Positions 297 through 28,383 of a DNA stretch of 30,340 nucleotides are shown one piece after another; positions within the stretch are counted from its first letter, which is position 1, and the number at the start of each line of letters is the position of its first letter. The position numbers and the translations under genes were made by a program. Origin of the DNA: a virus (taxonomy: Duplodnaviria; Heunggongvirae; Uroviricota; Caudoviricetes); IMG/VR virus record IMGVR_UViG_2531839446_000015, one strand, 5' to 3'. The notes under the pieces are model-generated. The model was not told the DNA's origin. It ran no database searches and worked only from the letters and a program-made list of their open reading frames with translations.

Positions 297-1337
297 CTAA
301 GCTGTCGCGACATTTTTGCGACATTTTAGGGGGTTAAGTCGCACAGCATCTTCAAGGTGGCTTGGGGCGAAGTGGGCATAACGCATTGTCATGGTTATGT
401 CAGCGTGGCCGAGAATTTTTTGCAAAACCAGAATGTTTCCGCCGTTCATCATAAAGTGGCTGGCAAATGTATGGCGCAGTACATGGGTAAGCTGGCCGGA
501 GGGGAGTTCAATGCCTGCGCGTTCCAGAGCAGAGCGGAAAGCGTTGTAGCAGGGCTTGGGGAACAGAGCGCCTTTTGTTTCAGGTAATTCGGACAGAAGT
601 TCATCATCAAGGGGAATTGTTCTGTTGCGCTTCCCTTTGGTTTTGACGAACGTGACTTTACCCCCGGCGATCTGGGAGCTTTTCAGCGTTGCCGCCTCAT
701 TCCACCTTGCGCCGGTAGCAAGGCAGATTTTGACAACTAATTCTAGGTACTTAACTTTGCTTCGTTTGCATTCCAGTAAAAGCCGATCAATTTCTTCGGT
801 AGTGAGGAAAGCCATTTCGGTTTCATCAGTACGATACTGTCTGACGTTTTCCAGTGGGTTGGGTGCTGACCATTCACCAATCCGTTTCAGTTCATTGAAC
901 ATCGCTAGAAAGTAAGCATGTTCAAGGTTCATAGTTTTCGGGGAAACCTTAGATACTCTGTTGGTGCGGGCATAATGCCCATCCAGCCTTTTAGCGCGGT
1001 AGGCTGTGAACAACTGGGCATTAAATTCTGTGGCCAGCGGGAATCCCATGCATTCCGCCGCCCAGGTCATAGCATCTTTACGCTTTTCGCCATTGCTCAA
1101 AGCTACGCCGTGGCGTTCATACCACATTGTTATCAGATCTATTAAAGTTCGCTTGTCCTTCCCTTCACCCAGCCACGGAGCTGCGTCTACTTTCTGAAGC
1201 GTATGGTTTTCGAATGCCAGGGCTTCCCCTTTCGTGGCAAATTTTTTACGTATACGCTTCCCGTTCTTGCCATTACTGCGGTTGACGGTGTAGAAGTCGG
1301 CGATCCATTCGCCTGTAGGAAGTTTACGAACGCTCAT
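297..1337 (-). CDS. int: Tyrosine integrase (P2/186 family site-specific recombinase)
   Basis: 346 aa ORF; C-terminal catalytic signature HVLRHTFASHF ... LGHADITMTMRYAH (His/Arg box and active-site Tyr); lies directly downstream of the repressor gene with 1-nt spacing (cI stop 1339-1341, int ATG 1335-1337), as in 186. Confidence 0.9.
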   Translation of the reverse strand: MSVRKLPTGEWIADFYTVNRSNGKNGKRIRKKFATKGEALAFENHTLQKVDAAPWLGEGKDKRTLIDLITMWYERHGVALSNGEKRKDAMTWAAECMGFPLATEFNAQLFTAYRAKRLDGHYARTNRVSKVSPKTMNLEHAYFLAMFNELKRIGEWSAPNPLENVRQYRTDETEMAFLTTEEIDRLLLECKRSKVKYLELVVKICLATGARWNEAATLKSSQIAGGKVTFVKTKGKRNRTIPLDDELLSELPETKGALFPKPCYNAFRSALERAGIELPSGQLTHVLRHTFASHFMMNGGNILVLQKILGHADITMTMRYAHFAPSHLEDAVRLNPLKCRKNVATA

Positions 1338-1338
1338 T

Positions 1339-1962
1339 TTATTTTATCGTCAGAACAACGCGGCCTATGATTTTTATGTCGTCAATTCCGCAATCAAATG
1401 CCATACCAACACCGCTAACTCTGACTTTTCGTACCGGAATCCGTGTAAGAGTGCGGACGCTTGTTTTTCCTTCAACTTCAACCAACCAATCATCGTCATA
1501 AACTTCAGAATAAGACTGGTCAACAATGTACTGAATAAGGCCATCCAGAACACAAATCGGTTGTTGCGGTAAGGGCTTGCCAGGCAGGAAGATGACTTTA
1601 TCAAGCATAAGTGTGCCAGCGTCATAGAGTTGGCCATCAACAATCTTGCTGCGCGGCATTTTGAGTATGTCTAATTCATCATCATTAAATTTACGTCCCT
1701 GTCCTGTTGCCAGCCACTCCAGATTAGCGCCTGTTTCGGCTACGCATTTCACGACAATATCTGCCGGGAAAACTCCACGCTTGTAGCGTGAAGAAAGAGA
1801 ACTGGCTGCCATGTCCAGATGTTCCGCGAGCTGTAACTTCTGCGTAAATCCGTAAGCCTCGATCACCCTGTCAAGAATCGGTGTGCTATCTACGTTTAGG
1901 TCGATTTTAAATGTGCTCATAGCGAATCCATAAGTCTCGATTCGAGAAATTGCCATTGACAC
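1339..1962 (-). CDS. cI: CI-type immunity repressor (186 CI-like)
   Basis: About 205 aa; N-terminal EAYGFTQKLQLAEHLDMAASSLSSRYKRG and C-terminal CGIDDIKIIGRVV resemble my recollection of coliphage 186 CI; divergent from the apl/cII operon. The annotated start at 1962 is GTG; an in-frame ATG at 1954-1956 is an alternative start. Confidence 0.8.
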   Translation of the reverse strand: MSMAISRIETYGFAMSTFKIDLNVDSTPILDRVIEAYGFTQKLQLAEHLDMAASSLSSRYKRGVFPADIVVKCVAETGANLEWLATGQGRKFNDDELDILKMPRSKIVDGQLYDAGTLMLDKVIFLPGKPLPQQPICVLDGLIQYIVDQSYSEVYDDDWLVEVEGKTSVRTLTRIPVRKVRVSGVGMAFDCGIDDIKIIGRVVLTIK

Positions 1963-2011
1963 TTCTCGAAACGCGAATTAATCTGGCTCCATATTTCGAA
2001 TGTTGCCTTAT
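1935..2011. promoter_or_regulatory. Lysis-lysogeny switch region: rightward sigma70-like promoter and candidate CI operator half-sites
   Basis: TTGACA at 1956-1961 and TAATCT at 1979-1984 with 17-nt spacing, reading toward apl (ATG 2056). Inverted repeat TCTCGA-T-TCGAGA at 1935-1947; TTCGAGAA at 1941-1948 and TTCTCGAA at 1963-1970 are reverse complements; another TTCGAA at 1995-2000. Confidence 0.4.
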
Positions 2012-2055
2012 ATAACCCTGTATTGCCGTACAGGTTAACTTGTGGAGTTTGCCTT

Positions 2056-2277
2056 ATGCGTCCGAACATTACAATCATCATCCCAGAACCATACCTGCCT
2101 TTAGACGAGTATTGCCGCCGTACTGGCACCAACAAAGAAACCGCCAGGAACCTGATCGAATACGGAAAATTACCTATTAAGCCGAAGGGTAAGCAGAAGA
2201 AAGGCCTGGTCGAAGTCAACATGGCCGCGCTCACTATTCAGGCTTTAAGTGAATGTGACATTTCGCTTAACGCGTAA
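2056..2277 (+). CDS. Apl/Cox-like excisionase and early regulator (by position and size)
   Basis: 73 aa from the ATG at 2056 (the track ORF starts earlier at 2023); first gene of the rightward operon facing cI, the position held by apl in 186 and cox in P2. Sequence similarity was not verified. Confidence 0.5.
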   Translation: MRPNITIIIPEPYLPLDEYCRRTGTNKETARNLIEYGKLPIKPKGKQKKGLVEVNMAALTIQALSECDISLNA

Positions 2278-2307
2278 TCCATCCTACGGATTAGGGAGAG
2301 GCAAACA

Positions 2308-2811
2308 ATGTTTGATTACCAGACATCTAAACATGCGCACTTTGATGCGGCTTGCCGAGCATTTGCAACTGAGCACAATCTTGAAGATGTGGCCGCTGCT
2401 GTTGGTATGAGGCCACAGATCTTGCGCAACAAACTGAACCCAGCGCAACCGCACCGCCTAACCTGTGATGAGCTTTTGGCTATCACGGATTACACCGAAG
2501 ATGCACGTTTACTTGATGGGATGTTAGGTCAGATTAACTGCCTTCCATCCGTGCCGGTGAACAATGCCACTGAAGCCAACATGCAACTGTGTGCGCTTAG
2601 CGCCACTGCGTGTGTGGGAGCGATTGCTGGGGAAGCCGTATCAACTGGCCATATGACCGCCGCCCGCCGTGCTCAAATTTTGGATCGCGCCCGCGATGCA
2701 ATCCGTAGCTTATCCGTGCTGGCTTATACCGTTGAAAGCCGTATTCACTCTGCGCCGGTTCTGGCTGCTGCGGTGGATCTGGTCACAACCCACGCCACCG
2801 GCCTGATGTGA
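2308..2811 (+). CDS. cII: CII-like transcriptional activator (186 CII family)
   Basis: 167 aa; N-terminus MFDYQTSKHAHFDAACRAFA ... LRNKLNPAQPH ... CLPSVPVNN closely matches my recollection of 186 CII; purine-rich stretch upstream of the ATG at 2308. Confidence 0.75.
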   Translation: MFDYQTSKHAHFDAACRAFATEHNLEDVAAAVGMRPQILRNKLNPAQPHRLTCDELLAITDYTEDARLLDGMLGQINCLPSVPVNNATEANMQLCALSATACVGAIAGEAVSTGHMTAARRAQILDRARDAIRSLSVLAYTVESRIHSAPVLAAAVDLVTTHATGLM

Positions 2812-2820
2812 GGGAACACT

Positions 2821-2994
2821 ATGAAAGCGTTTGTCACTTACCTGAAAAAAGAATCACCAGCCATGCAGTTGCCGAGTGGTTCAACGGGCTGGATAGAACT
2901 GCCGAACGGTCAGCGCTGGAACCCAGGCCACATTTACAAATTCAATGGCCAGCAGCCGCGCCGCCCGTGGTGGCGTCGTCTGATGGGGCTATAG
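2821..2994 (+). CDS. Small hypothetical protein (57 aa, basic C-terminus)
   Basis: ATG at 2821 preceded by GAGGGA (2810-2815); ends TAG 2992-2994. Below the 60-aa cutoff of the ORF track. It is in a different frame from the 2808 track ORF and overlaps its 5' part, so this is an alternative gene model. Confidence 0.3.
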   Translation: MKAFVTYLKKESPAMQLPSGSTGWIELPNGQRWNPGHIYKFNGQQPRRPWWRRLMGL

Positions 2995-3002
2995 GAGGCG
3001 TT

Positions 3003-3431
3003 ATGGCGATTAGCCAGGAACAGCAAAAGCGCGGGCTGGAGCATTTAAAACAGATCCGCCGCAAATACTTCAGCAAAAGCAGCGAGGCCGCTGAATGGTG
3101 GGACAACTTAACACCGGAGTGGCGCGGCGTAGTGCTTCATGCTGCTGCGGTTACATCTGGTACCGGGGCATTTAAAGCCCATTTAAGTAAGTGCTGCTGG
3201 CGGGAGCTTTATGACCGCCTGGGCTATCGGGACATGATTCAACTGCGCCAGGGCATTTCACGGGCGCGGTTAACGTTTGAAGGTTTCGGCAGTTTACGTG
3301 ACAGCGATTTTTCGAAGCGCACCGCGAACCGCTCGATCAAAAAAGTACATCCCATTTATAGCAGTGGCGGGGTGCAGATGGTGATCGCGCCGCATATCGT
3401 CCATAAGTTCCAGCAACAGGGGAATCACTAA
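3003..3431 (+). CDS. Hypothetical early protein (142 aa)
   Basis: ATG at 3003 sits 4 nt after a perfect AGGAGG (2993-2998). The track ORF 2808-3431 is the same frame extended upstream to a GTG with no Shine-Dalgarno. Confidence 0.5.
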   Translation: MAISQEQQKRGLEHLKQIRRKYFSKSSEAAEWWDNLTPEWRGVVLHAAAVTSGTGAFKAHLSKCCWRELYDRLGYRDMIQLRQGISRARLTFEGFGSLRDSDFSKRTANRSIKKVHPIYSSGGVQMVIAPHIVHKFQQQGNH

Positions 3432-3832
3432 TGACCATTATTTCCGTTGAGGGCAAATCGTTGGGGGCAGAGCTGGCTGTGTGGGGCGTCCCGCATAACT
3501 ACGCATTAGCGTTTGCAGAGAAAAGCACCAGTAAAAATGGGCGTATCGCTTTGCATCCGTTCTTCTTCAATGACACTGAACACATGACAAATCCGCGTCA
3601 CTGGCTGGCGATCAATGCTGCTTTCTGGTGCTGCGTGTATCGCGAAGCGGAAAGCAAAGAAGCCCAGATAGAAGCGCTGGCGGGGATTCGTGCAATTTTC
3701 TATACAGCCGGGGCATTGGGAGTTGGCGAGATAAAAGCGCTGATCCAGGAGTGGTGGCGGACAACCTATGAGCTGCACCTGATTCCGGCTCCGAACTACT
3801 CAGCCGCCACAGTACAACCCACTTTTCACTAA
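3431..3832 (+). CDS. Hypothetical early protein (133 aa)
   Basis: TAATG stop-start overlap with the upstream gene; no family recognised by eye. Confidence 0.5.
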   Translation: MTIISVEGKSLGAELAVWGVPHNYALAFAEKSTSKNGRIALHPFFFNDTEHMTNPRHWLAINAAFWCCVYREAESKEAQIEALAGIRAIFYTAGALGVGEIKALIQEWWRTTYELHLIPAPNYSAATVQPTFH

Positions 3833-3851
3833 TTAACAGCCTGAATTTTTT

Positions 3852-3885
3852 GGCCACGGTTCAAGTGGCCGGGGATTCTTTTGCC
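3852..3885 (+). terminator. Intergenic hairpin, possible attenuator or weak terminator
   Basis: GGCCAC (3852-3857) and GTGGCC (3865-3870) form a 6-bp stem with a 7-nt loop, followed by GGGGATTCTTTTGCC; the T-run is separated from the stem by four G residues. Confidence 0.25.
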
Positions 3886-3899
3886 TTAAGGAAACCAAA

Positions 3900-4133
3900 A
3901 TGCACATGACACGTCAGGATTTACCCGCAACAAAATCAGGCACCGACCTGCTGGCCATGCTCACCAAAGCCACGCAGGAAGGTAAAGCCGCAGTTGCTGA
4001 TCTGTGTTCCACCCGTCTGGATAAGCTGGCCACTCATGCGGCCAATGAAGGTTTAAGCGCAACGGAAATCGTTGAGTTAATCCGCGAAGAAGCCGCAGCG
4101 ATTTGCAGCAAAGGCGGTGCGGCATGGCAGTAA
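3900..4133 (+). CDS. Hypothetical small protein (77 aa)
   Basis: AAGGA Shine-Dalgarno upstream of ATG 3900; alanine-rich, predicted helical; no family recognised. Confidence 0.4.
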
Positions 4134-4453
4134 AAATTCATGCGGTAAAAATTGCGCCAAAATATCTTGATGCAGTAGTGGCTGGTCAGAAAAAGGCCGA
4201 GCTGCGAAAAAACGATCGCGGGTATAAAACCGGTGATGTTCTTTCATTGTGCGAGTGGAAGCACGGGAAATACACCGGGCGAGAGTGGGCGGCAGTTATC
4301 ACCCATGTTTTGCCGGTGAATGAAATTATCGCTGATACCGAAAATTGGGTGGTTTTATCTATCCGTTCGCTGTCACCGCTTGAAGTGCTGGAATACATCA
4401 TTTCAAACGGTGTAACAGAGTCGTTAGTTGGCGGAGGTCAATATGGCCGTTAA
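4124..4453 (+). CDS. ASCH-like / DUF3850-like small protein
   Basis: From internal ATG 4124: [45 protein letters not shown] resembles the DUF3850/ASCH pattern (KIWPEYFEAV..GKKTFEIRKNDRDFxVGD) as I recall it; overlaps the previous gene by 10 nt. Confidence 0.5.
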
Positions 4454-5303
4454 AACTCCGCTTAAATGGGTGGGCAGCAAAGCCCGCCTCATGCCTAAGC
4501 TGCGTCCGCACCTTCCAGAAGGTAAACGCCTGGTTGAACCGTTCGCAGGTTCCTGCGCCGTCATGATGAATACGGATTATGACGAGTATCTGATCGCAGA
4601 TGTGAATCCTGACCTGGTTAATCTTTATAAGGCGATGGCGTATCACACTAATGCGCTGCTGAATGAGCTGGAGATCCTGTTTTCTGCCGGTTCGTTAGGT
4701 GATGTAGAAAGCCGTGCCGTTTTCTATTACGCAGTGCGTGATGCTTTCAATCTTTCTGGTGGTAAGGCCGGTTCTGAATCTGTTGAAAATGCTGCGCGTT
4801 TCCTGTACCTGAACCGGCACTGCTTCAATGGTCTGTGTCGGTATAACCGTCGAGGCCAGTTCAACGTCCCGTTCGGTAAGTACAAAAAGCCTTATTTCCC
4901 CGCTGATGAAATCCGCGCCTTTGCTGAAAAAGCAAAACGCGCAACGTTCATTACTGCCCACTATTCAGAAACGCTTGATTTGGTTCGGGGCGGGAGTGAC
5001 GTTGTTTACTGTGATCCGCCTTATCTGACTGATGCCGACAATTTCACCGCTTACCATGAGCGCGGTTTTTCGCATATGGATCAGGGGCGGCTGGCGCGTA
5101 AACTGCGCCGTCTGGCGGAACGTGGGATTCCCGTTGTCGCGTCAAACAGCGATCTGGAAATGGTGCATTACCTGTATGCAGGGTTTGACGCCGTAAAGGT
5201 TAATGCGCCGCGTAGTGTCGGTGCGGCAGCTGCAAGCCCGAAAACGGCGGCAGAGCTGATTCTTAAATGGCCTTTACCGGCGACTTCTGAGGCCAGCGCA
5301 TGA
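4443..5303 (+). CDS. dam: DNA adenine methyltransferase, Dam (GATC) family
   Basis: Motifs [13 protein letters not shown] (N-terminal Dam/SAM motif) and DPPY (catalytic); GGAGG before ATG 4443; stop overlaps the A-gene start (ATGA at 5300-5303). Confidence 0.85.
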
Positions 5304-7321
5304 CGCTGGCAATAAACGAACAATGCTATGCCGTTGATGCCTGGAGGCGGGAAACTTTCGCACCAGGCACACCGGCAGACGCGACTATCACAGAACGCCG
5401 CCTGTGGGCTGTAAACCCGCAGGATTATGAATGGCGATCCCGGTACCTGCATGAGATACCCGACTGGTTAGCCGGGTATTTTGGCCGTCGCTATGAAAAG
5501 CTTTTTTCTGGCCGTGACGGGCGTCGCCGTGCCAATACATTCCTGCGCAAAACAATCGGTGAGAATGTATTGCCACGTCTGCGCAAAGTGGCTGCGCGTT
5601 ACTCGCTGGCCGCTGATGCTGCTGATCTTCCTTTTGGTAAGTCGCTGGAGCGCTTGCCGTCACTAGACCGTCCTGATCTTAAAAAACTGGCTGGCCAGGT
5701 ATCTGGCTGGATTTCCCAGTCACTTTATGACTTCACCGAACAGTTTGATTCCGGCACTGACGACGCCAGAGAGCTGCATCGCCGCACTCTGGAATCTTAC
5801 CGCCATCTTTGTGCCTGTTGCCTGATGCTGAATAACCAGCCGCCGTACTGGACTGAACATGAGGCCAATGAAGGTCAACTGGAAATGCGTAAGGCGGAAT
5901 CCGGGATACTGCGCATGATGGCGCCGGAATGGTGGTACCTGCGTCTTAAACGTGCGCGTGATACGCAGCGCGAGCACATGGCCATTGCGGTGGGACAGGT
6001 GCAAAAAGCGGCCAGCGCTTATGTATCCCGCAAAACACTGGGTGAATGGATAGACCAGAAAAAGCGGAATCTGGAGTTCTTTAAAAAGTTTGATCTGCTG
6101 AATGATGAGGGGCTGCGCATTGCACTGGACAGCATGGTGCACCGCAGCGTTGCAAATCCGGCGATCCGTCGATGTGAACTAATGGTAAGAATGCGAGGGT
6201 TTGAAGATATGGCCAATGAAGAAGGGCTGGCCGGTGAGTTTTACACTATCACCGCGCCATCACGTTTCCATGCGGTTCACAGCAAAGGGGGCTTTGTATC
6301 GCAATGGGATGGAAGTACGCCGCAGGATACCCAGCGCTATTTATGCGGCGTATGGGCAAAAGCGCGTGCAGCGATCTCGCGTGCTGGTATCCATGTATTT
6401 GGGTTTCGGGTTGTTGAGCCTCACCATGACGGGACACCGCACTGGCATATGTTGCTTTTTATGCGTCCGCAGGACGTGGACACGGTACGCGATATTCTTT
6501 GTTATCACGCCAGAATTACCGATTCTGAAGAACTGCAATCTGAAAAGGCGCTGAAGGCGCGTTTTCATGTTGAAGCTATCGATCCCGCCAAAGGTTCGGC
6601 CACGGGCTACATCGCGAAATACATTTCAAAAAATATTGATGGTTTTGCGCTGGATGGTGAGCAGGACGAAGAAACCGGCGAAAACCTGCGTGATATGGCT
6701 AAGTCCGTTTCCGCGTGGGCTTCACGCTGGCGTATTCGCCAGTTTCAGCAGATTGGTGGTGCGCCGGTAACCGTCTGGCGTGAGCTGCGTCGGTTGCGGG
6801 ATCAGGTACTGACAGATCGCAGAATGGATGCGGTTCTGGCCGCTGCTGATGTCGGGGACTGGGCTGCATATACCCAGGCGCAGGGAGGTGCACTGGTTGC
6901 CCGCCGTGATCTGGTTGTTCGTCTGGCCTATGAAATTACGGAACAGGGCAACGAATACGCGGAGGACGTGCAGCGCGTACAGGGTGTTTATTCTCCTTTG
7001 ATTCCTGATTCAGAAGTTTGCACCCGTCTGGTTAAGTGGCAAAAGGTTGCGAAGTTGGCCGAAGCGCCAGCGGAGGCGGGTTTTTCTGGCGGCAACGCCG
7101 CCCCTTGGAGTTCTGTCAATAACTGTACGGAGGGGGGAACCCGCAGACGGTTAAAACTGGAATTACGCAGTCGGGGTTTTGAGGGTTCCGATGAAGAAAT
7201 AGCCATTCTCCTGCGGGGTAGTGGTTTGATATTTGGTCAGGGGGCACTGATTTACCGCAATGGGCGGTTGAAGGAAACACGAAACGAACCATTGCAGGAG
7301 CTTTGGCCGGGGTGGTTATAG
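5300..7321 (+). CDS. Rolling-circle replication initiator (P2 gpA / 186 A family endonuclease)
   Basis: 673 aa; HUH-type motif PHWHMLLF and active-site tyrosine region YIAKYISKN; position after the early operon. Confidence 0.85.
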   Translation: MTLAINEQCYAVDAWRRETFAPGTPADATITERRLWAVNPQDYEWRSRYLHEIPDWLAGYFGRRYEKLFSGRDGRRRANTFLRKTIGENVLPRLRKVAARYSLAADAADLPFGKSLERLPSLDRPDLKKLAGQVSGWISQSLYDFTEQFDSGTDDARELHRRTLESYRHLCACCLMLNNQPPYWTEHEANEGQLEMRKAESGILRMMAPEWWYLRLKRARDTQREHMAIAVGQVQKAASAYVSRKTLGEWIDQKKRNLEFFKKFDLLNDEGLRIALDSMVHRSVANPAIRRCELMVRMRGFEDMANEEGLAGEFYTITAPSRFHAVHSKGGFVSQWDGSTPQDTQRYLCGVWAKARAAISRAGIHVFGFRVVEPHHDGTPHWHMLLFMRPQDVDTVRDILCYHARITDSEELQSEKALKARFHVEAIDPAKGSATGYIAKYISKNIDGFALDGEQDEETGENLRDMAKSVSAWASRWRIRQFQQIGGAPVTVWRELRRLRDQVLTDRRMDAVLAAADVGDWAAYTQAQGGALVARRDLVVRLAYEITEQGNEYAEDVQRVQGVYSPLIPDSEVCTRLVKWQKVAKLAEAPAEAGFSGGNAAPWSSVNNCTEGGTRRRLKLELRSRGFEGSDEEIAILLRGSGLIFGQGALIYRNGRLKETRNEPLQELWPGWL

Positions 7322-7440
7322 GTGTGCATGTGTGTGTAACACATTCATTTGTCAGTAGATGGCAGGAAATTAAATTTCACAATTCGTGCTTTAAGGTGTA
7401 CTGTATGTATATCCAGTTATTTATTGCTTGTGGGGGCTAA

Positions 7441-7647
7441 ATGGATCTTTTGGAGGCGTCGGCACAGCTGGAACGCATTGAGTTATTGGCCAAAATTGCC
7501 CATGTTTACGAAAGTAACCAGAGAGAAAAAACAATCGCTTTGGCCTGGATTGGAGAGCTTGCGGGAGAGGTTCGCGAAATGGTTAAAAAGGAAGGGCAAC
7601 GCCCCCAGAATGGGGGCATTTCAGGCGGCGGGAGTCGCTTTCAGTAG
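7441..7647 (+). CDS. Hypothetical small helical protein (68 aa), doubtful
   Basis: ORF in the A-to-portal interval; weak G-rich Shine-Dalgarno; 3' end overlaps the convergent ogr-like gene by 27 nt. Confidence 0.25.
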   Translation: MDLLEASAQLERIELLAKIAHVYESNQREKTIALAWIGELAGEVREMVKKEGQRPQNGGISGGGSRFQ

Positions 7648-7890
7648 GTCTAATGCCATCTGGCGCTGATCGGGTGAAAGTGCATTCAGTATTTTTTGCA
7701 CCATCGCATCACCCGCTTTAGCGCTGGGGCTGAGAGTGTGGGAGAACGTCAGATTCATAACAAACGTGTGGCCACACTCAACATCTGAACAGGCGCAGTA
7801 AATATCCGCAATTTGCCGGTGCTTCCTGTTCGTTTTACGAATAACAGCCTTTGAGCCGCATTCCGGGCATTCGATTTTCAGAACTCGCAT
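7621..7890 (-). CDS. ogr: Ogr/Delta-family zinc-finger late-gene transcription activator
   Basis: From ATG 7890 (GGAG upstream): MRVLKIECPECGSKAVIRKTNRKHRQIADIYCACSDVECGHTF gives C-x2-C-x22-C-x4-C spacing and a C-terminal TF motif as in P2 Ogr (CPLC ... CQNVNCSATF). The track ORF extends to 7944 with no Shine-Dalgarno. Confidence 0.7.
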   Translation of the reverse strand: MRVLKIECPECGSKAVIRKTNRKHRQIADIYCACSDVECGHTFVMNLTFSHTLSPSAKAGDAMVQKILNALSPDQRQMALDLLKATPAA

Positions 7891-7940
7891 ATTCCATGCT
7901 CCAGCTGTTAAATGATGCCTGGATTTTAGCCTGTTTCGCC

Positions 7941-9002
7941 TCATGCCGCACCCTTATCCGTTGATTCTGTGTAACTTAAATCAAAGTTAAGGTGTAGCCT
8001 TTCCGGTATTTCGGGATCATTGTTAACGGCCAGCATAAAACGGCGCTGGATGGGGGCAATTTCGCTTTTCTTGTAAATGCGTTCAGCCTTTTCAACATCC
8101 CCCAGTCCGGCAGTGTTCTGCGGGACAATACCGGCGAGGCCAGCAGGGAAACGGTGAGCGTTCAGAATGTCCTGGGCGCTGATGTTCTTGATGTTGGCAA
8201 ATTCATCCTTTGCGGAAATATCCCCCATTTCAATGAATTTGATGGCGTCGCCGTCTCCACCGGGAATGTTTACAAGGATGGTGGAGAAGTTACCGATCCC
8301 TTTGCTGTCACGCAGCTGCTGTTCAATTTCTTCCTCCATTTCGTCCGTCATGCTGGGATCGCGGGTATAAAGAATACCGCCTGTGTGCGCACCATTGTGG
8401 TAATAGCGGCGTCGGAAAATGACCGCTTCACTGTTAAGTAACGCGGAATGCACACCGCCTATGTAGTCCGGCAGCCCGTAGATATGCTGTTGCGGGTCAT
8501 ACATTTTGATGAAGATAATATCTTCTTCTGGCCATACCTGCGGTTCCCCTTCCTGTAACACCACGTAGTCACCAGGCTTATCCAGGGCGTTATCTCTGAC
8601 TTTGCGGCGGCGAATATACAGACCGGGCAAGGGTTCAAGTGCGATCACGTCACCCCAGCCGTTACGAATTTTGGCAATCGCAATATCCCCAAAGGTTATA
8701 TAGTCAAACGCTGCCGCTTCCAGCTGGTCGTGAATAAGCCCGCCCCCCTGGTAGTCTGAAACAATCATGTTTTTACGGGCGTGAATGATGCCGCCGTGCT
8801 GACCGTTAAGATTAATCAGTTGCGCGAGTGCCAGCCGGTCAATCGGCTGGGTGAAGTGATCGGCGGCATTGTCGTACCAGATATCACGGTAATCTGTGCC
8901 GGTAGTCAGAACTGGTTCAGGTTTGCCGAATGTGATAATGCTCATCTTTTTTGATTTGTCGCCGCGCTGGTCGCGCTTAACAAAGCGTTTCTTTTTACTC
9001 AT
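7941..9002 (-). CDS. Portal protein (P2 gpQ-like)
   Basis: 353 aa; overlaps the large terminase stop; gene order Q-P opposite to O-N-M-L as in P2. Confidence 0.85.
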   Translation of the reverse strand: MSKKKRFVKRDQRGDKSKKMSIITFGKPEPVLTTGTDYRDIWYDNAADHFTQPIDRLALAQLINLNGQHGGIIHARKNMIVSDYQGGGLIHDQLEAAAFDYITFGDIAIAKIRNGWGDVIALEPLPGLYIRRRKVRDNALDKPGDYVVLQEGEPQVWPEEDIIFIKMYDPQQHIYGLPDYIGGVHSALLNSEAVIFRRRYYHNGAHTGGILYTRDPSMTDEMEEEIEQQLRDSKGIGNFSTILVNIPGGDGDAIKFIEMGDISAKDEFANIKNISAQDILNAHRFPAGLAGIVPQNTAGLGDVEKAERIYKKSEIAPIQRRFMLAVNNDPEIPERLHLNFDLSYTESTDKGAA

Positions 9003-10774
9003 GCTGCCTCTTTCCTTACACCCCAGCGGGATTTAGGTTTGTTTTCATAATTAAGGGGTTCGTTATGCAGACCGTGGGTAATCGCCCAGAACGCCTCCGC
9101 GTGGCCGGTATCCTGGCTGCGGTCAGCGACAAACGTCATGGCGTTGCCGCTTTGTGTGGTGGTTCGGCGCACAGACATAAAGCTGGCGGCGATCTCTTTC
9201 AGGTTTTTATCCCACTCAATACGCTGGCTTTCCACCACGTCCACCGCTTTCAGTACCAGCTTATTTTTGGTGTTCAGGTCGTAACGAATAGGGACGGCCA
9301 CGCGCATGGCAAAATGCTGAATGTTGTCAAAAACACCCTGGCCAATGCCGGTAACGTCCACCCCCAGATATGTGAAGTTGTATTTTTTGAACAACTGCTC
9401 GATCTGTTTTGCCTGGTACCGGAAGTTCATGCCTTTCCAGTAAATCACCTTCAGAACGCGGAACTTCTCCACGGCGAGCATCGGTGGGGCGATGATGACA
9501 AAACAGGACAAATCCCCGCTGCGAGCCGGGTCAAAGCCGCCCCACACTGGCCTGTCACCGAATGGCCGCGCTGCATCTGGGTTGTGATCCTGCCAGGTGT
9601 CGATTTCAACGCCGCAGGCTTCCAGGTCGGAAAAGCTGAAAACGGAATCTTTGCTGTCAACGAACACGCACATATAGAGCATGTTAAAAGTGGCGTCGTT
9701 GTAGCGGTTGCGAAGTTTCTCGATGTTCGCCAGGTTGAAACCGCCCGCAATGGCATCTTCCATCGTAATGACGTAGCGCCATTGCCCATCCGGGCAGAGT
9801 CGCCCGCCGTCACGCATTTCGTTAAAGGAAGGAAACTTAATGGCCGCACGTTTTTTACTGCCCTGTTTCCACTCATCGCCCGTCCAGAACGGGTACGCCT
9901 GGTGCGTTTTTGCCGATGGCGTTGAAAAATAGGTGGTACGCCACTTGTCATGCGTGGCCATTGCGCTGGCCACTTCGTTAAGTTTTGCAAAGTTTGGTAC
10001 CCAGAAATATTCGTCACAGTACAGGTGGCCACTGTAGGACTGGGCGGTGTTTTTGTTGGTGGAGAGAAAACGCAGTTCTGCGCCGTTGCTTAAGCGGATC
10101 GGGTTACCGGTCAGCGTAATACCGAAATACTGCTCTGCAATATTCACGATGTAAGACCGGAACACTTCAGCCTGAGCCTTTGACGCTGACAGAAAGATTT
10201 GCGGATCGCCGGTCATCACCGCGTTTTCAAACGCTTCAAACGCAAAATACCAGGTCGCACCGATCTGGCGGCTTTTCAGGATATTCCTGACAAGCTGGCC
10301 AATGTTATTGCGCAGGTGTTTCTGATATTCAAAAAGATGTTCCTCAGCCCATGCGTCAAAGTCCTCCTGCGTCAGCGAGGTAATATCGTTTTTCTTGTAC
10401 TTCCGTTTGCTGCGCGGTTCGTCGTCATTGTTGTCCCGCGCAGCTGCTTGCCCGGAACTCTGACCGCTGGCCATTTTCTCTTTGTGTTTATTACTCTGCG
10501 CACGCAGTTTCGTGGCATGAGCAATGAGCATGTCCATTTCTTTCAGGTCGAGATCGGTTTTGTTATCGCGGCTGGCCAGCAGTTGGTAACGGCGTTCAAT
10601 CGCTTCCTCTGTGCTTTCAAAACTGAGCAAATCCGCCCAGCTGTATTTCTCCGCCCAGTAGTAAACGATCCGCGCATTCGGCAGATTTAATTCAGATGCG
10701 ATTTCCTTTGGCGTATAGCGGCGCAGATAAAGTGCGCGAACAACGCCTTTTAATTCTTCAGAGTATTTAGCCAT
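8999..10774 (-). CDS. Terminase large subunit, ATPase (P2 gpP-like)
   Basis: 591 aa; divergent from the scaffold gene; size and position match P2 gpP. Confidence 0.85.
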   Translation of the reverse strand: MAKYSEELKGVVRALYLRRYTPKEIASELNLPNARIVYYWAEKYSWADLLSFESTEEAIERRYQLLASRDNKTDLDLKEMDMLIAHATKLRAQSNKHKEKMASGQSSGQAAARDNNDDEPRSKRKYKKNDITSLTQEDFDAWAEEHLFEYQKHLRNNIGQLVRNILKSRQIGATWYFAFEAFENAVMTGDPQIFLSASKAQAEVFRSYIVNIAEQYFGITLTGNPIRLSNGAELRFLSTNKNTAQSYSGHLYCDEYFWVPNFAKLNEVASAMATHDKWRTTYFSTPSAKTHQAYPFWTGDEWKQGSKKRAAIKFPSFNEMRDGGRLCPDGQWRYVITMEDAIAGGFNLANIEKLRNRYNDATFNMLYMCVFVDSKDSVFSFSDLEACGVEIDTWQDHNPDAARPFGDRPVWGGFDPARSGDLSCFVIIAPPMLAVEKFRVLKVIYWKGMNFRYQAKQIEQLFKKYNFTYLGVDVTGIGQGVFDNIQHFAMRVAVPIRYDLNTKNKLVLKAVDVVESQRIEWDKNLKEIAASFMSVRRTTTQSGNAMTFVADRSQDTGHAEAFWAITHGLHNEPLNYENKPKSRWGVRKEAA

Positions 10775-10826
10775 GCGGATAATTATGCCGTGGCTGTGAT
10801 GAAAAAACGGTGGTGTTAATTCGTGT

Positions 10827-10855
10827 CTGTTCGGTAAAGCGTTATAACCGAACTG
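10827..10855. promoter_or_regulatory. Inverted repeat in the divergent late-promoter region, candidate activator site
   Basis: GTTCGG (10829-10834) and CCGAAC (10848-10853) separated by 13 nt, flanked by direct CTGTTC repeats; lies between the divergent P and O starts. It does not match the P2 TGT-N12-ACA consensus. Confidence 0.25.
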
Positions 10856-10935
10856 TTCAGAATAAAGCGTAATGCGGTGGCGGTTTTATTTGGCAATAAT
10901 TGATTTGCAGCGTCAGGGAGTGGAACAGGGGGGAT

Positions 10936-11739
10936 ATGTCACATTTAAAAACTGACTGGCTGTGTGTTGCTACTGAAGGGGATACCGTTGACGGCAGGGT
11001 AATTAAACGGCAGTGGATCATTGATATGGGGGAAACCTATGACTATAGCCACTATGTCGCTTTAATCTGGCCAGAACATGAGGATGATTGCGGGAATTTT
11101 GGTGAAGTGCTGGAAGCCACCTGGAATGATGGTGAAGATGGACTGGCACGGTTATATGTCAGCCTTTGCCCGAATATGCGTCTGATTTTCGCAAATCATG
11201 AAGATCAGCTTTTGTTCTTCTCCATTGAGCCGGAAGAAAACTGGCGCGGTAGCGGGCGTACTTACCTGAAAGGGCTGGCGGTAACAGATACACCTGCCAG
11301 CGTTGGCACCACACGGCTGCGTTTTAGTAGTCGGCGCAATAAATTAACAAAGCAGGGATATTACAGTTGTGTAATTTCCCGTGACGGAAAAATTAAACAG
11401 GAAGCAAGAATGAAGAACTGGCAGAAACGGTTTGGTATTAAGCCAAAGTTTGAAGATGAAACGCCACAGGATAATCCTGCCCCGGATGAAGATAAATTAC
11501 AGGCGCTTGCCAATGTAGTGAACGATCTGGAAGCGCGAGTGGCGAAAATTGAAAATCAACTGAATGACGTTCAGGGTGATGTTGACACAATCGCTGAAGT
11601 GGTGGATACGCAGGAATTTGCGGCAATCCGCGATAATGCAAAAGAAATCGTAACCCGCTTTAACGATCTGGGTAATAAAAACACCCGTACACCGGGGCGT
11701 ACTATTAAAGATAAAGCCGGGAAATTTAATTTCCTGTAA
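10936..11739 (+). CDS. Capsid scaffolding protein (P2 gpO-like)
   Basis: From ATG 10936: CVATEGDTVDGRVIKRQWI resembles the P2 gpO N-terminus (GVEGDTCDGRVISAQDI); central YLKGLAVTDTPAS matches CYLVGLAVTDDPAS. Confidence 0.8.
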   Translation: MSHLKTDWLCVATEGDTVDGRVIKRQWIIDMGETYDYSHYVALIWPEHEDDCGNFGEVLEATWNDGEDGLARLYVSLCPNMRLIFANHEDQLLFFSIEPEENWRGSGRTYLKGLAVTDTPASVGTTRLRFSSRRNKLTKQGYYSCVISRDGKIKQEARMKNWQKRFGIKPKFEDETPQDNPAPDEDKLQALANVVNDLEARVAKIENQLNDVQGDVDTIAEVVDTQEFAAIRDNAKEIVTRFNDLGNKNTRTPGRTIKDKAGKFNFL

Positions 11740-11801
11740 TTCGCTTTATTGCTGATTAGTCCAGAACATATTTTTAAATCGCTTAATTGCGAGGGAGTTT
11801 T

Positions 11802-12824: not shown

Positions 12825-12827
12825 TAA

Positions 12828-13532: not shown

Positions 13533-13538
13533 CAACAA

Positions 13539-13775: not shown

Positions 13776-13871
13776 ACGACTACCGCAAGCCAGGCGGACG
13801 CGGTGGAGGGCAGAACACCTTGTGTGTAACTGCGCCGTGGAAACCGGCCAGTCCGCCTTTTCGGGGGATTT

Positions 13872-15531: not shown

Positions 15532-16655
15532 CCTGGCCAATTGTGACCGTAAACCAGGTAAATCAGCTGTTGGGTGAAACCAATGAAGTGGAACGCACAC
15601 TGCTGTTTATCGGTTCGGGTACCAAAAATGTGGGGAAAACGCTGGCGGTGAATGCCCAGAGTGATTTTGATTCGCTGCTGGGCGAGGAAGCCAGTCCGCT
15701 GAAAAATGATGTTCTGGCTGCTCTGGCGAACGCTGGCCAGAACTGGTGGGGATTCATTCACGTCCTGCCAGCTGACGCGGAGGCAGATGCCTGGGTGAAA
15801 GCGGTTCTGGCCGCGCAGGTGGTGTGCTCTGTGGAAGGCGTGGTGCTGTCTGACGATGTGACCGCTAAAGCGCAGGTAAATCAGGCCGTGACGTTACGAT
15901 CCACCCTGATTTCAAAGTATGGCCGCTGGGTGTGGTTCATTCTGGCCGCACAGGGAATGCAGGACGAAGAAGCCCAGGCGGATTATCAGGTACGCATGGC
16001 CACCCTTCAGGATGGCATTGCAGAAAAGGCGGTGCAGCTGGTTCCCCGCCTGTGGGGAAATGAACCGGGTGTGCTGGCTGGTCGCCTGTGTAGCCGAGCG
16101 GTAACCATTGCTGACAGTCCGGCGCGGGTTAAAACCGGTGCTCTGATGAATCTTGGCAGTGATGAAATGCCGGTTGATGGTACCGGGGAAGTGCTGGAAC
16201 TGGCCACACTTCAGGCGCTTGAAGCACAGCGTTTCAGTGTGCCGATGTGGTACCCGGATTATGACGGTTTTTACTGGGCTGATGGCCGCACGCTGGATGT
16301 TGAGGGCGGCGATTATCAGTCGATTGAAACCCTGCGCGTTGCGGATAAAGCTGCCCGCCGTGTTCGTCTGCTGGCTATCAGCAAAATCGCGGATCGCTCG
16401 CTGAACAGTACGCCGGGAAGTATCGCCGCACATCAGACACTGTTTGCCCGTCCACTGCGTGAAATGTCCACTGCAGCCAGCATTAACGGTGTGTCATTTC
16501 CGGGTGAAGTGAAGCCGCCGCAGGATGGTGATGTGACCATTGTCTGGAAAAACAAAAAGGCGGTGGATATTTACATTGTGGTGCGCACCTGGGAAGTGCC
16601 GCTGCAAATCACCATCAGTCTGTTACTGGATGCGAGTCTGGAGGCTACAGCATGA
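15528..16655 (+). CDS. Putative tail sheath protein (by position; conserved phage protein, possibly DUF2586-like)
   Basis: 375 aa; lies between the completion proteins and a tube-sized gene; no similarity to P2 FI recognised by eye. The DUF assignment is a recollection only. Confidence 0.4.
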   Translation: MTWPIVTVNQVNQLLGETNEVERTLLFIGSGTKNVGKTLAVNAQSDFDSLLGEEASPLKNDVLAALANAGQNWWGFIHVLPADAEADAWVKAVLAAQVVCSVEGVVLSDDVTAKAQVNQAVTLRSTLISKYGRWVWFILAAQGMQDEEAQADYQVRMATLQDGIAEKAVQLVPRLWGNEPGVLAGRLCSRAVTIADSPARVKTGALMNLGSDEMPVDGTGEVLELATLQALEAQRFSVPMWYPDYDGFYWADGRTLDVEGGDYQSIETLRVADKAARRVRLLAISKIADRSLNSTPGSIAAHQTLFARPLREMSTAASINGVSFPGEVKPPQDGDVTIVWKNKKAVDIYIVVRTWEVPLQITISLLLDASLEATA

Positions 16656-17107
16656 CCAAACGTATTTCGGGTATGTCGTTTGACACCTATATGGACGGCG
16701 ATCTGATCCATATCGAGAAAATCACGCTCGATATTACGGATAACAGCGCTGCCGCCCAGACGCGTGGCGTCCCTGACGGGTATGTGGATGGCGATGTTGC
16801 TGCTGAGGGGGAAATTGAAGTCAGTTCAAAAACACTTCAGGTGCTGACAGCCAAAGCCCGTGCAGCGGGTTCATGGCGTGGGCTTCCCCCACTTGATTTT
16901 CTTTTCTATGCCAAAGCCAGTAGCGAAGAAATGAAGGTGGAGACGTTCGGCAATAAATTGCAGGTCAGCAACCTGCTGGATATTGATCCGAAAGGGGGCG
17001 GCGTGACCACGCACAAAATCAAATATTTCGTGACCAGTCCGAAATTCGTCAACATCAACGGTGTGCCGTATCTGGAAGCGGAAGCCACAGAAAACCTGAT
17101 CGGATAA
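16652..17107 (+). CDS. Putative tail tube protein (by position; possibly DUF2597-like)
   Basis: 151 aa, tube-sized, directly after the putative sheath; ATGA overlap with the upstream gene. Confidence 0.4.
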   Translation: MTKRISGMSFDTYMDGDLIHIEKITLDITDNSAAAQTRGVPDGYVDGDVAAEGEIEVSSKTLQVLTAKARAAGSWRGLPPLDFLFYAKASSEEMKVETFGNKLQVSNLLDIDPKGGGVTTHKIKYFVTSPKFVNINGVPYLEAEATENLIG

Positions 17108-17116
17108 GGGGCAGGG

Positions 17117-26165: not shown

Positions 26166-27868
26166 TGATGAAACCAGTAAAACGCCTTTACCTTTCAACG
26201 GATGAAGTTCACCTGGTGGATGCCAGCCTGGTACTGGAGCTGAACAGCTGCGGCCGGGGCTTCATCACCGCAGAGACAACAACCGATTACACCGGAAAAC
26301 TGGTGCGGCTGGATGTAGGGTATACCGATCTGCTTTTGCGCTGGTTTACGGGGTACGTGGAGCGATCGCAGCCCGCAGAAAACGGTTTTCAGCGTCTGTT
26401 CATTCGTGAGCTGGTAGGTGTGTTTGAAAGGATGTGGCCGTGCTCATTTCAACATCCAACTTTACGCGAGGTTGCCAGCTGGCTGGAAGAAAACAGTGGT
26501 ATCTCGGTCAGTGTGCCTGATGCACAGTACAGCGATACCCCCATCCCACATTTTACCCATAACGGTACCGGCTATCAGTTGCTGAACAATCTGGGAAGGG
26601 CGTTCAGTATCCAGGATTACATCTGGTACCAGTTGCCTGATGGTTCGCTTTACGTCGGTGGCGCAGAAAAGTCACTGTTTGCCGGTCGTCCCGTAGAAAT
26701 CCCGTCAGAGTTCAGCCAGGGGGCTGCTGGTGGTAACTCTGTGACATTACCAGTGATCCAGACTATGCGGCCAGGGGTGGAGATGAACGGTGAACGCGTG
26801 ACTAAAGTTCACCTGACTAATGACACGATGGCGATCACATGGACGCCGAGAAACCGCGCAACGGGTAAACCTTTGCAGAAAACACCGGCGCAACGGCAGA
26901 TTGAAAGCCATTACCCGGAACTGGCATCCGGGCTTCATTTGCCAAAGACGGCCAGAGTCGTGGCGCATTCAGAGCCAGTAAAAAGCGGTAACTTTGCCGA
27001 TCCCTTCCGGCCACGTTACGCCGTGGACGTGCAACTGCTTGACGCAGACGGAAACCCGGACAATCAGACGCCTGTTTACTCAGCGGTGCCGCTGCCGGTA
27101 CCAATGGCCGGGAATGATTCAGGTATGTTTCAGTTCCCGCCTGAAGGGACGCTGGTTGAGGTCGCATTCACAGGAGGCAGACCGGATAAACCCTTTATCA
27201 GGCAGACGCTGCCGGATGGCACCAGTCTGCCGGACGTTAAACCCGGTGAGCAATTACAGCAGCAGCGGGAAGAAGTATCCCTGAGGGTGACTCAGGCGGG
27301 TGACTGGGTAAGGCAGACCGATCAGACCATCAGCGAAACATCAATGGTGCGAACCGTAAAAGCCGATACAGAACAGCGCGAACTGGTCAGCCGTGAAACC
27401 ACGGTGAAAGCCACGGATAAAACCACGGTACTGGGAACCGCCACATTGCTGGCCGGAGCCATCCAGCAGGTAAGCGCCGGTGATTATAGCCAGGCGGTGA
27501 AAGGTAACAGGCTGGCCAGTATTGAAGGAAACGAAGAAACGGACATAGCAGGACAGCAGTCCACTAAAGTGGGCGGTGCTGTAGCCGTGGAGGTTGGCGA
27601 AAGTCTGACAGAGAAGATTGCCGCACTGCGTAAATCAGTGGCTGCTGGCGGTCAGCAGGTCATGGGGGCAACTGTCCATATTGGCAGTGAGAGCATCAAC
27701 GCCCTGACCATGATGCTGGATACCATTGATTTACTGGCAGAGCTTGCGCAGCAATGCGCGAACCATTCGCACCCCACCGTTGGAACTCCAACCAATGCCG
27801 CCGCGTTCACACTGACGGCGACGAAAGCCGGGCAGACCCGGAGCAAATACCAGAATATAATTGCCTGA
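26165..27868 (+). CDS. Baseplate hub / central spike protein (gpV/gp5-like OB-fold domain)
   Basis: 567 aa; FQFPPEGTLVEVAFTGGRPDKPFI matches the gpV/gp5 OB-fold consensus (P2 gpV: VGEQVLILAVGGELDTAFVL); C-terminal ANHSHPTVG resembles the His-rich spike apex; about 300 aa of extra N-terminal sequence. Confidence 0.6.
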   Translation: MMKPVKRLYLSTDEVHLVDASLVLELNSCGRGFITAETTTDYTGKLVRLDVGYTDLLLRWFTGYVERSQPAENGFQRLFIRELVGVFERMWPCSFQHPTLREVASWLEENSGISVSVPDAQYSDTPIPHFTHNGTGYQLLNNLGRAFSIQDYIWYQLPDGSLYVGGAEKSLFAGRPVEIPSEFSQGAAGGNSVTLPVIQTMRPGVEMNGERVTKVHLTNDTMAITWTPRNRATGKPLQKTPAQRQIESHYPELASGLHLPKTARVVAHSEPVKSGNFADPFRPRYAVDVQLLDADGNPDNQTPVYSAVPLPVPMAGNDSGMFQFPPEGTLVEVAFTGGRPDKPFIRQTLPDGTSLPDVKPGEQLQQQREEVSLRVTQAGDWVRQTDQTISETSMVRTVKADTEQRELVSRETTVKATDKTTVLGTATLLAGAIQQVSAGDYSQAVKGNRLASIEGNEETDIAGQQSTKVGGAVAVEVGESLTEKIAALRKSVAAGGQQVMGATVHIGSESINALTMMLDTIDLLAELAQQCANHSHPTVGTPTNAAAFTLTATKAGQTRSKYQNIIA

Positions 27869-27880
27869 CCATGATAACAC

Positions 27881-27903
27881 GCCCGCATAATGCGGGCTTT
27901 TTT
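27881..27903 (+). terminator. Rho-independent terminator ending the late/tail operon
   Basis: GCCCGC-ATAAT-GCGGGC hairpin (27881-27897) followed by TTTTTT (27898-27903), 13 nt after the spike gene stop. Confidence 0.8.
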
Positions 27904-28312: not shown

Positions 28313-28344
28313 AAAAAAGCCCGCGACATCAGATGTGGCGCGGG
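28313..28344 (-). terminator. Rho-independent terminator for the minus-strand gene 28384-29100
   Basis: Stem CCCGCG (28320-28325) pairs with CGCGGG (28339-28344); on the minus strand it is followed by a U6 run (plus-strand A-run 28313-28318); 40 nt downstream of the gene stop. Confidence 0.65.
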
Positions 28345-28383
28345 ATGGATAGAAATTTATTCTTATAGAACAACTGAAAAAAA

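Follow-up and report, generated by a model that had tools for sequence, protein, structure and literature searches.

An apparently intact Quadragintavirus prophage at the mntS/mntR site of Escherichia coli, with HP1-type late genes and a 186-like early region

[quoted passage not shown] The group of "HP1-like viruses", whose capsid genes stand in P2 order, was defined by Lavigne et al. (2009; PMC2771037). Three Escherichia phages, ESSI2_ev015, ESSI2_ev040 and ESSI2_ev129 (abbreviated to ev015, ev040 and ev129, and together called the ev phages), were isolated as temperate coliphages related to ESSI-2 (Mathieu et al., 2020; PMC6969025). All of them belong to Peduoviridae, genus Quadragintavirus, which comprises exactly these three species; a 2026 paper on P2-like diversity names neither Quadragintavirus nor Seongnamvirus nor Hpunavirus. 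The following analysis concerns a stretch of 30,340 nucleotides, the virus record IMGVR_UViG_2531839446_000015 of IMG/VR, the whole of which is called the window below. With high confidence, we interpret the window as holding the prophage of a temperate P2-family myovirus (Peduoviridae), apparently intact, which falls within Quadragintavirus, the genus of ESSI-2-like phages, and which sits in the E. coli chromosome between mntS and mntR. The object is of a kind already known: a prophage of Quadragintavirus whose layout is the one standard in the HP1 branch.

When window 297-25000 was used as a megablast query against phage records, ev015 was matched over 90% of the query with 95.7% identity, ev040 over 89% with 95.8% and ev129 over 70% with 98.0%. 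A one-way similarity was also calculated as identity multiplied by coverage over 199-30340, which is a BLAST approximation and not a VIRIDIC value. It amounts to 0.84 for ev015, 0.83 for ev129 and 0.80 for ev040 (0.86-0.89 for the ev phages when cargo is left out), to 0.57 for Cronobacter phage ESSI-2, and to 0.04, 0.02 and 0.006 for HP1, 186 and P2, respectively. In this approximation, the values of 0.80-0.84 for Quadragintavirus members lie above 70%, and the maximum of 0.84-0.89 lies below 95% for all three named species, because of the int-cI-apl allele, the cargo and small indels. By nucleotide similarity, the prophage is a member of Quadragintavirus that is distinct at the species level from the three named species.

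The hallmarks of Peduoviridae are present, namely a divergent capsid cluster at 7941-14324 with the Pfam order Phage_portal, Terminase_6N/6C, Phage_GPO, Phage_cap_P2, Phage_term_smal and Phage_GPL, together with a Phage_GPA initiator and an Ogr_Delta late activator (Table 1). Eganvirus and Peduovirus do not accommodate the prophage, since no tblastn match to P2-type tail genes was obtained and the nucleotide similarities are 0.02 and 0.006. Among complete E. coli genomes, 25 contain at least 80% of window 1-25000 (97% coverage and 96.4% identity for the top match), and the top matches occupy the identical chromosomal site, between mntS and mntR. An initial annotation of this DNA, made from the sequence alone, had described a mosaic prophage with 186-type immunity, P2-type head and replication genes and a differently ordered tail. 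All the genes it listed were found in their places by Pfam and PHROG searches. As the finding that would refute a mosaic, it had named an already described phage genus in which precisely this gene order goes together with high identity along the whole length; for the backbone, Quadragintavirus is such a genus.

The left end of the prophage is marked by the core GCTATATTATA, which is the only 11-bp repeat common to the mntS-int and cargo-mntR spacers of two related lysogens. The right-hand attachment (att) core lies at the window-equivalent position ~32541, ~2.2 kb past the window end, in assembly GCA_000194665.2, which is 100% identical to window 22714-30340; with this core, the full prophage would measure ~32.3 kb. 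The element runs from the attL core to this attR and not, as first annotated, from 297 to 27903. Neither tRNA nor tmRNA genes occur in the window, so that a tRNA as the att site is excluded. A palindrome, ATATAGCACAGGCTATAT (188-205), which resembles an MntR operator, lies directly upstream of mntS and overlaps the att core (188-209 together). Integration puts ~32 kb between mntS and the divergent mntR, and the palindrome is restored at attL.

Almost all backbone open reading frames (ORFs) are full length in comparison with ev015, most of them with 89-100% amino acid identity, and for the structural proteins the identity to ev-phage counterparts is mostly 91-100%, with scaffold O at 76%. We consider it improbable that the prophage is a defective (cryptic) one, complete in appearance and unable to excise, replicate or assemble. 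Heavily deleted remnants of the same prophage are common in E. coli, so the lineage decays in place, and point mutations could still inactivate a gene of full length. However, the close relatives of its structural proteins come from plaque-forming ev phages, and the frameshift signal, the spanin lipobox, the att core and the terminator are intact. The prophage is probably functional, as judged from its sequence.

For determining the affinity of each gene, all window proteins were compared with HP1, K139, phiO18P, P2 and 186 by tblastn. The large terminase P scored 612-655 bits against HP1-type phages vs 430-436 bits against P2/186, the portal Q 273-311 vs 176-194, the major capsid protein N up to 345 vs 103-112, the small terminase M 171-218 vs 55-63, and the head completion protein L 114-117 vs 41-43. 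Identities follow the same direction, with 49-51% to HP1 vs 33-42% to P2/186 for Q and P, and 49-55% to K139/phiO18P vs 27-28% to P2/186 for N. The late genes, including Q, P, O, N, M, L and ogr, have their top score in HP1-type phages, except for the holin, which has it in P2; int, cI, cII, fil, A and the Tum-like ORF have it in 186. Since the six capsid genes are nearer to HP1-type phages than to P2/186, head and tail share one ancestry. By these scores, the true switch of affinity is at the boundary of the early and late regions, ~7.3-7.9 kb; gene A and the Tum-like ORF lie to its left, ogr and Q to its right. Deep mosaicism is confined to an HP1-like late region that is combined with an early region of 186-like character and has a holin like that of P2, and it is common to the ESSI-2 group. 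ESSI-2 and the ev phages show the same affinity pattern, which is thus old in the lineage rather than peculiar to this prophage.

The 186-like character of the lysogeny and replication genes, as initially annotated, was borne out, with identities to 186 of 62% for Int, 43-45% for CI, 44% for CII, 39% for Fil and 46% for A. The "P2-type head" is of P2 type in the layout of its cluster, while its sequences are nearer to HP1, K139 and phiO18P than to P2/186. The exchange proposed for the tail and lysis region appears to hold for lysis (a holin 54% identical to P2 Y, and an M15 endolysin) and is not supported for the tail, which has the same affinity as the head.

It is very unlikely that the 186-like early region was swapped into an HP1-type phage recently, giving a fresh hybrid unique to this prophage. 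The int-cI-apl block (297-2300) has 57-70% amino acid identity to ev015 and the remainder 89-100%, and this divergence indicates that immunity modules are exchanged among close relatives. However, CI, Cox, CII and A genes of these families occupy corresponding places in ESSI-2, ev015, ev040 and ev129, the identity to ev015 reaches 96-98% for cII, fil and A, and K139 and phiO18P also have cI, cox and cII. On these comparisons, the 186-like character is older than this prophage, and the sole recent change there is an allelic replacement of int-cI-apl, which is routine in temperate phages. Recent exchanges in comparison with relatives are modest throughout, and concern the int-cI-apl allele, the Tum-like ORF, the scaffold, early indels, the slot between M and L, and the cargo.

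Least likely of all is a P2/186-type phage that retained its immunity, replication and head modules and gained its tail and lysis genes from a foreign source through recombination, the junctions being near 14300 and 27900 as initially annotated. The tail proteins do lack tblastn or hhalign similarity to FI, FII and other P2 tail proteins and the capsid cluster does show P2-family order and Pfam families, but for ogr and all six capsid genes the scores against HP1, K139 and phiO18P exceed those against P2/186, and the R-like gene stands directly after L also in HP1, K139, phiO18P and ESSI-2. Moreover, identity to close relatives does not change abruptly at 14300 in any of them, the terminator that follows the hub gene ends at 27903, and a lineage known for a long time is defined by this very layout (PMC2771037).

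Table 1. Features of the window, with positions, strand (a dot where no strand applies) and the basis of each assignment.
Feature	Position	Strand	Basis
mntS, host gene, left flank	1-129	-	100% amino acid match to annotated E. coli mntS
attL core GCTATATTATA	199-209	.	11-bp direct repeat
Tyrosine integrase int	297-1337	-	Int_N + Phage_integrase
CI immunity repressor, 186 type	1339-1920	-	Phage_CI_repr + Phage_CI_C
Lysis/lysogeny switch region	1921-2055	.	pR-like promoter and palindromic candidate operators, read from sequence
Cox/Apl-position excisionase-repressor	2056-2277	+	PHROG 575 "Cox-like excisionase and repressor", E 1.5e-27
CII lysogeny-establishment activator	2308-2811	+	Phage_CP76, E 5.7e-47
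Fil	2821-2994	+	Phage_186_Fil
Two early proteins	3003-3431, 3431-3832	+	PHROGs 33841 and 3935
Terminator-like hairpin	3847-3875	+	Terminator scan
DUF2732 protein	3900-4133	+	Pfam
DUF3850/ASCH protein	4124-4453	+	Pfam
Dam-type N6-adenine methylase	4443-5303	+	Pfam
Replication initiator A, rolling-circle nickase	5300-7321	+	Phage_GPA, E 6e-105
LexA box TACTGTATGTATATCCAGTT	7399-7418	+	Consensus search
68-amino-acid Tum-like putative antirepressor	7441-7647	+	186 Tum alignment and position
Ogr/Delta zinc-finger late-gene activator ogr	7621-7944	-	Ogr_Delta, E 9e-20; downstream of Q
Portal Q	7941-9002	-	Phage_portal
Large terminase P	8999-10774	-	Terminase_6N/6C/Terminase_5
Divergent late promoter region	10775-10899	.	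Dyad GTTCGGT-N11-ACCGAAC at 10829-10853
Scaffold/protease O, major capsid N, small terminase M	10900-13532	+	Phage_GPO, Phage_cap_P2, Phage_term_smal
Head completion L	13872-14324	+	Phage_GPL; PHROGs 65 and 26 within the L/R/S-like block
Tail terminator R	14321-14827	+	P2_Phage_GpR
S-like tail completion protein	14824-15531	+	Phage_tail_S borderline (23.4 vs 24.3 bits); PHROG 26 clear
Contractile sheath, 375 amino acids	15528-16655	+	DUF2586; PHROG 907 "tail sheath"
Tube	16652-17107	+	Phage_HP1_Orf24
Holin	17117-17419	+	Phage_holin_3_2; 54% to P2 Y
M15 endolysin	17406-17747	+	Peptidase_M15_4
Rz i-spanin	17747-18085	+	Lysis cassette 17117-18245; cassette evidence includes PHROG 1152
Rz1 o-spanin, overlaps Rz	17946-18245	+	Signal peptide, lipobox LSAC near N-terminus (translation)
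Tail assembly chaperone	18232-18489	+	Phage_TAC_10
Tape measure	18677-20644	+	PhageMin_Tail
DUF2590 (W position)	20641-20970	+	Pfam; wedge PHROGs 1237 and 1228
Baseplate_J	20967-22151	+	Pfam
I-like baseplate wedge protein	22144-22731	+	Pfam/PHROG
Tail fibre H	22742-24346	+	Phage_tail_fib, Collar
Fibre assembly protein G	24346-24933	+	Caudo_TAP
HP1 orf33-like	24923-25648	+	Similarity to HP1 orf33
HP1_ORF34 baseplate protein	25620-26165	+	PF25759, E 3.7e-54; PHROG 2258 "baseplate protein" in 24923-27868 block
VgrG/gp5-like hub-spike, 567 amino acids	26165-27868	+	Weak VgrG, Phage_base_V and Gp5_C matches
Intrinsic terminator, end of late operon	27882-27903	+	GC hairpin plus T-run read from sequence
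Predicted cos (cohesive-end) site	28043-28067	.	ESSI-2 record ends and ev015 record break
Low-GC (~0.40) variable cargo	28290-30340	-	Composition; operon continues past window
238-amino-acid moron	28384-29100	-	PHROG 1962
54-amino-acid ORF	29557-29721	-	Cargo ORF
DUF6338 membrane protein	29714-30340	-	DUF6338, E 3e-37

The lysogeny region has the features of a 186-type switch, a repressor with CI_repr and CI_C domains facing the Cox/Apl gene, which is followed by CII and Fil. CI aligns with 186 CI over the full length at 45% identity (E 2e-49). Int has 51-53% identity to HP1/phiO18P and 57% to ev015, and arm-type-like repeats, GCGACATTTTT, are found inside int at 307-327. The pR-like promoter is TTGACA-17-TAATCT at 1956-1984, and the intergenic region probably acts as the switch, to judge from its position in comparison with 186. 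A perfect CTGT-N8-ACAG palindrome at 2018-2033 (CTGTATTGCCGTACAG) in the switch region, just upstream of the apl-position gene, was not taken as a LexA box, as this single site has a chance expectation of 0.3; it may have arisen by chance or may serve as an operator for a repressor. The Cox/Apl-position protein probably has the same role as Apl, yet is not its orthologue. CII is 35% identical to phiO18P, and A is 37% identical to P2 and 32-40% to HP1-type Rep.

A generic scan for sigma-70 promoters and terminators gave results at or below the level of shuffled sequences, and was used only for the hairpin after the two early proteins. The content of the early operon varies among relatives: the ASCH gene, 48% identical to P2 orf91, is present here and in the ev phages (a counterpart is found in ev015) and absent from the related prophage of E. 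coli CM2010-0578/1 (CM2010 below), and the ev phages have an extra exonuclease gene that is missing here. The LexA box TACTGTATGTATATCCAGTT is the sole match in the window at up to three mismatches to the consensus, and 0 of 100 shuffled sequences gave a match. The Tum-like ORF is located 22 nt downstream of this box and follows gene A, as Tum does in 186. It aligns with residues 5-42 of 186 Tum (32% identity, single-comparison E 1e-5) and is without the DinI-like C-terminal part of Tum. From these features, we infer with moderate confidence an SOS induction of the 186 kind.

The top matches of ogr are in K139 (56%) and phiO18P (46%), and P2/186 gave none by tblastn. In HP1 (NC_001697), an unannotated ORF at 10447-10635 (- strand), in the interval between orf14 and the portal gene, is 40% identical to the window Ogr. 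HP1 thus probably has an unannotated zinc-finger gene of Ogr/Delta type, in the same position as K139 orf13. The dyad between P and O is a candidate Ogr site by analogy with the P/O region of P2 and 186. Between M and L, a His-rich mini-ORF of 78 amino acids (13539-13775, + strand) contains 4.2 copies of a 45-bp unit, (GAHTHTVGAHSHSLG)n, with 98% matches (Tandem Repeats Finder), and matches the tail-fibre repeat Phage_fiber of Pfam (E 1.8e-7). This slot is variable, since in ev129 an equally long ORF contains this repeat and differs in one amino acid, ev015 and ev040 have an unrelated ORF of 65 amino acids, and in CM2010 and ESSI-2 it is empty.

The last 4 nt of L (14321-14324) are at the same time the first 4 of the R-like gene. 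HP1 orf22-24 and orf26-35 have collinear counterparts in the window with 29-60% identity (tblastn), the R-like gene matches the orf21 equivalents of K139/phiO18P, and two of the Pfam matches, Phage_HP1_Orf24 and HP1_ORF34, are named for HP1 ORFs. Identities to HP1/phiO18P are 52-55% for the sheath and 59-63% for the tube, the baseplate wedge proteins are 50-60% identical to HP1 orf28-30, and the tape measure is 30-31% identical to those of HP1, K139 and phiO18P over 99-100% of its length. For the fibre, conservation with HP1-type phages is restricted to the N-terminal half. As initially annotated, the tail gene order differs from that of P2, and sheath and tube are not recognisable as FI and FII. 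No match between them was obtained by tblastn, and hhalign gave a probability below 1% with alignments of 2-3 sequences of P2/186 FI and FII, which supports just "not recognisable by sequence". By tblastn, the window has no homologues of FI, FII, E, T, U, D, V, W and X of P2/186.

For the sheath, an AlphaFold2 model was made (mean predicted local distance difference test score 63.6), and its top 25 Foldseek matches in PDB are all sheaths of phages, contractile injection systems or bacteriocins, with E values from 5e-6 to 2e-3 and template-modelling scores of just 0.3-0.4. The ESSI-2 orthologue, to which the window sheath is 81% identical, has been modelled as a one-domain sheath (PMC9230969). 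Sequence searches of PDB with the sheath, tube, Baseplate_J and HP1_ORF34 proteins gave nothing useful, and the C-terminal residues 419-506 of the hub-spike match the T4 gp5 beta-helix (E 4.5e-7). The HP1-type tail is structurally uncharacterised; the gp5-like spike tip is the only one of the tail proteins tested that matched a solved structure by sequence.

A -1 frameshift is usual for tail chaperones. The chaperone gene of the window carries such a signal, with a slippery A_AAA_AAC at 18480-18486 and an open -1 frame up to 18680. Within the late operon, only the lysis genes depart from HP1-type affinity, and the M15 endolysin has no counterpart in HP1, P2 or 186. A homologue of Rz1 in PGAP/RefSeq begins at the equivalent of 18057 (189 bp), by which the lipobox would be lost; its start has probably been annotated too far downstream.

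The sequence CTACACCGCACCCGC, in which the two ends of the ESSI-2 record overlap, corresponds to window 28053-28067, with the hub gene on one side and the cargo and attR on the other, and the ev015 record is broken at the same point. We infer from this a cos site at ~28053-28067, the HP1-type position, which agrees with the published description of HP1-like viruses (PMC2771037). Positions 1-48 of the ev015 record (NC_049395.1) are a Nextera transposase adapter (reverse complement of CTGTCTCTTATACACATCT...) adjoining the genuine phage end, and this adapter is a contaminant of the public record. An ORF of 90 amino acids at 27890-28162, which has no family match and spans the terminator and the predicted cos, is regarded as non-coding.

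The sequence itself shows which genes are present and in what order, how far its nucleotides agree with those of named phages, and where an att core, a LexA box and a frameshift signal are located; regulation, inducibility, the exact cos cut and viability are worded as predictions in the following proposal of a life cycle. The 186-type CI repressor would hold the rightward early operon off. DNA damage would clear LexA from the box before the Tum-like antirepressor gene, and CI would then be inactivated. Excision through the 11-bp core would be carried out by the Cox/Apl-position protein and Int, rolling-circle replication would begin with the A nickase, and the Ogr zinc-finger protein would activate the divergent late operons. 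One rightward operon of ~17 kb would yield the capsid and an HP1-type contractile tail, with the lysis cassette embedded, and the P and M terminase would cut at a cos that adjoins attP and the cargo region, and not the portal gene.

Several points weigh against this account of an intact and inducible prophage. The inducibility and particle formation of this copy are predicted from DNA sequence. The P2 late-promoter motif TGT-N12-ACA has 5 matches vs 8 expected, none of them in the intergenic late region; being below chance expectation, these matches were discarded as evidence for Ogr sites, and late-promoter control is therefore assumed only from the presence of Ogr. The Cox/Apl-position protein gave no BLASTP alignment with 186 Apl, and the Tum-like label is drawn from the 32% identity over 38 residues, the position and the LexA box. 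The right end lies beyond the window, so that completeness there is judged from the 100%-identical assembly, and the placing of cos uses the ends of database records, one of which has adapter sequence at that end.

Matches to most relatives end at ~28200-28290, where the cargo begins. Beyond the window (NZ_CP019245 16041-18037; GCA_000194665.2), there are a protein of 341 amino acids, which matches the PADLOC candidate PDC-S64 (E 2.5e-47), and an ORF of 298 amino acids. PADLOC gave no significant match among the window-encoded proteins, the ASCH protein being marginal (E 0.003), and NCBIfam gave no match for any cargo protein or uncharacterised early protein. No functional study of DUF6338 or PDC-S64 was found in the literature. 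This slot is occupied in the other phages by genes for an acetyltransferase or for abortive infection. Three contexts of DUF6338 homologues were a TIR/SIR2 island, a restriction-modification/AAA_21 island and the moron slot of a Mu-like prophage, and in two of the three an ORF of 47-55 amino acids comes after the homologue, as in the window.

The defence hotspot of P2-like phages is cos-adjacent and lies between gpA and gpQ (Rousset et al., 2022; PMC9122126). In the present prophage, the interval between gene A and the portal gene contains only ogr and the Tum-like gene, and the predicted cos lies elsewhere, with variable cargo again beside it. As a speculation that we hold to be doubtful, the cargo region may be a hotspot for anti-phage or exclusion genes in HP1-type phages, possibly with a new membrane-associated defence or superinfection-exclusion system. 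Surveys of the P2 defence hotspot anchored on gpA and gpQ would miss cargo beside a relocated cos.

A remnant form of the prophage is found in many E. coli assemblies. It consists of window 1-3163, 20016-20052 and 26319-30340, with at least 99.9% identity, as exemplified by E. coli Combat13F7 (NZ_CP019245 8806-18337) and two further records alike. The remnant keeps int, cI, apl, cII, fil and the cargo, and has no structural genes except that 37 bp of the tape measure (20016-20052) are left. In a contig look-up, the remnant form outnumbered the intact form.

The case is given little weight as a discovery, because the HP1 architecture has long been known and was formalised in 2009, and the lineage has an ICTV genus. 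Its use is practical: when a P2-type head is found with a "non-P2" tail, a comparison with HP1, K139, phiO18P and ESSI-2 should be made before mosaicism is inferred.

In comparison with known systems, the prophage shares with P2 and 186 the Q-P/O-N-M-L capsid cluster, the A nickase and an Ogr-type activator, and with 186 also the CI/CII/Fil type of switch, the integrase and a Tum-like gene after A. It differs from both in that the tail genes follow the head genes as a single block, the predicted cos lies away from Q, the place of ogr is after Q and not at the right end, and Apl is unrelated in sequence. HP1, K139 and phiO18P have the identical late-gene order from the portal through the final baseplate gene, and in them, too, the lysis cassette separates the tube gene from the chaperone gene and the zinc-finger activator is beside the portal gene; their annotated order includes int, cI, cox and rep, with cII in K139 and phiO18P, and in HP1 and phiO18P cos is beside attP. 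Their late proteins are 30-63% identical to those of the window, whereas nucleotide similarity is almost nil (0.04). In contrast to these phages, the prophage has early proteins nearer to those of 186, a P2-like holin, and an M15 endolysin where HP1/K139 have lysozymes.

Cronobacter phage ESSI-2 (Seongnamvirus) is collinear with the prophage, its proteins are 55-90% identical, and its record ends give the same predicted cos sequence; it differs in a nucleotide similarity of 0.57, hence another genus, in a CI of 37% identity and in having no annotated cargo genes. The prophage of CM2010-0578/1 (NZ_CP087564) shares the mntS/mntR site, int and cI, with 96.4% identity over 97% of 1-25000. It is without the ASCH gene and the His-rich mini-ORF, and its cargo is a serine acetyltransferase. 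The ev phages have different cargo genes and, in the early operon, the extra exonuclease gene, and in ev015 the int-cI-apl allele has 57-70% and the Tum-like ORF 43% amino acid identity to the window. Because the int-cI-apl allele is different, the ev phages probably differ from the prophage in attachment site and immunity, whereas they share with it the gene order throughout, the predicted cos region and the cargo slot between it and attP.

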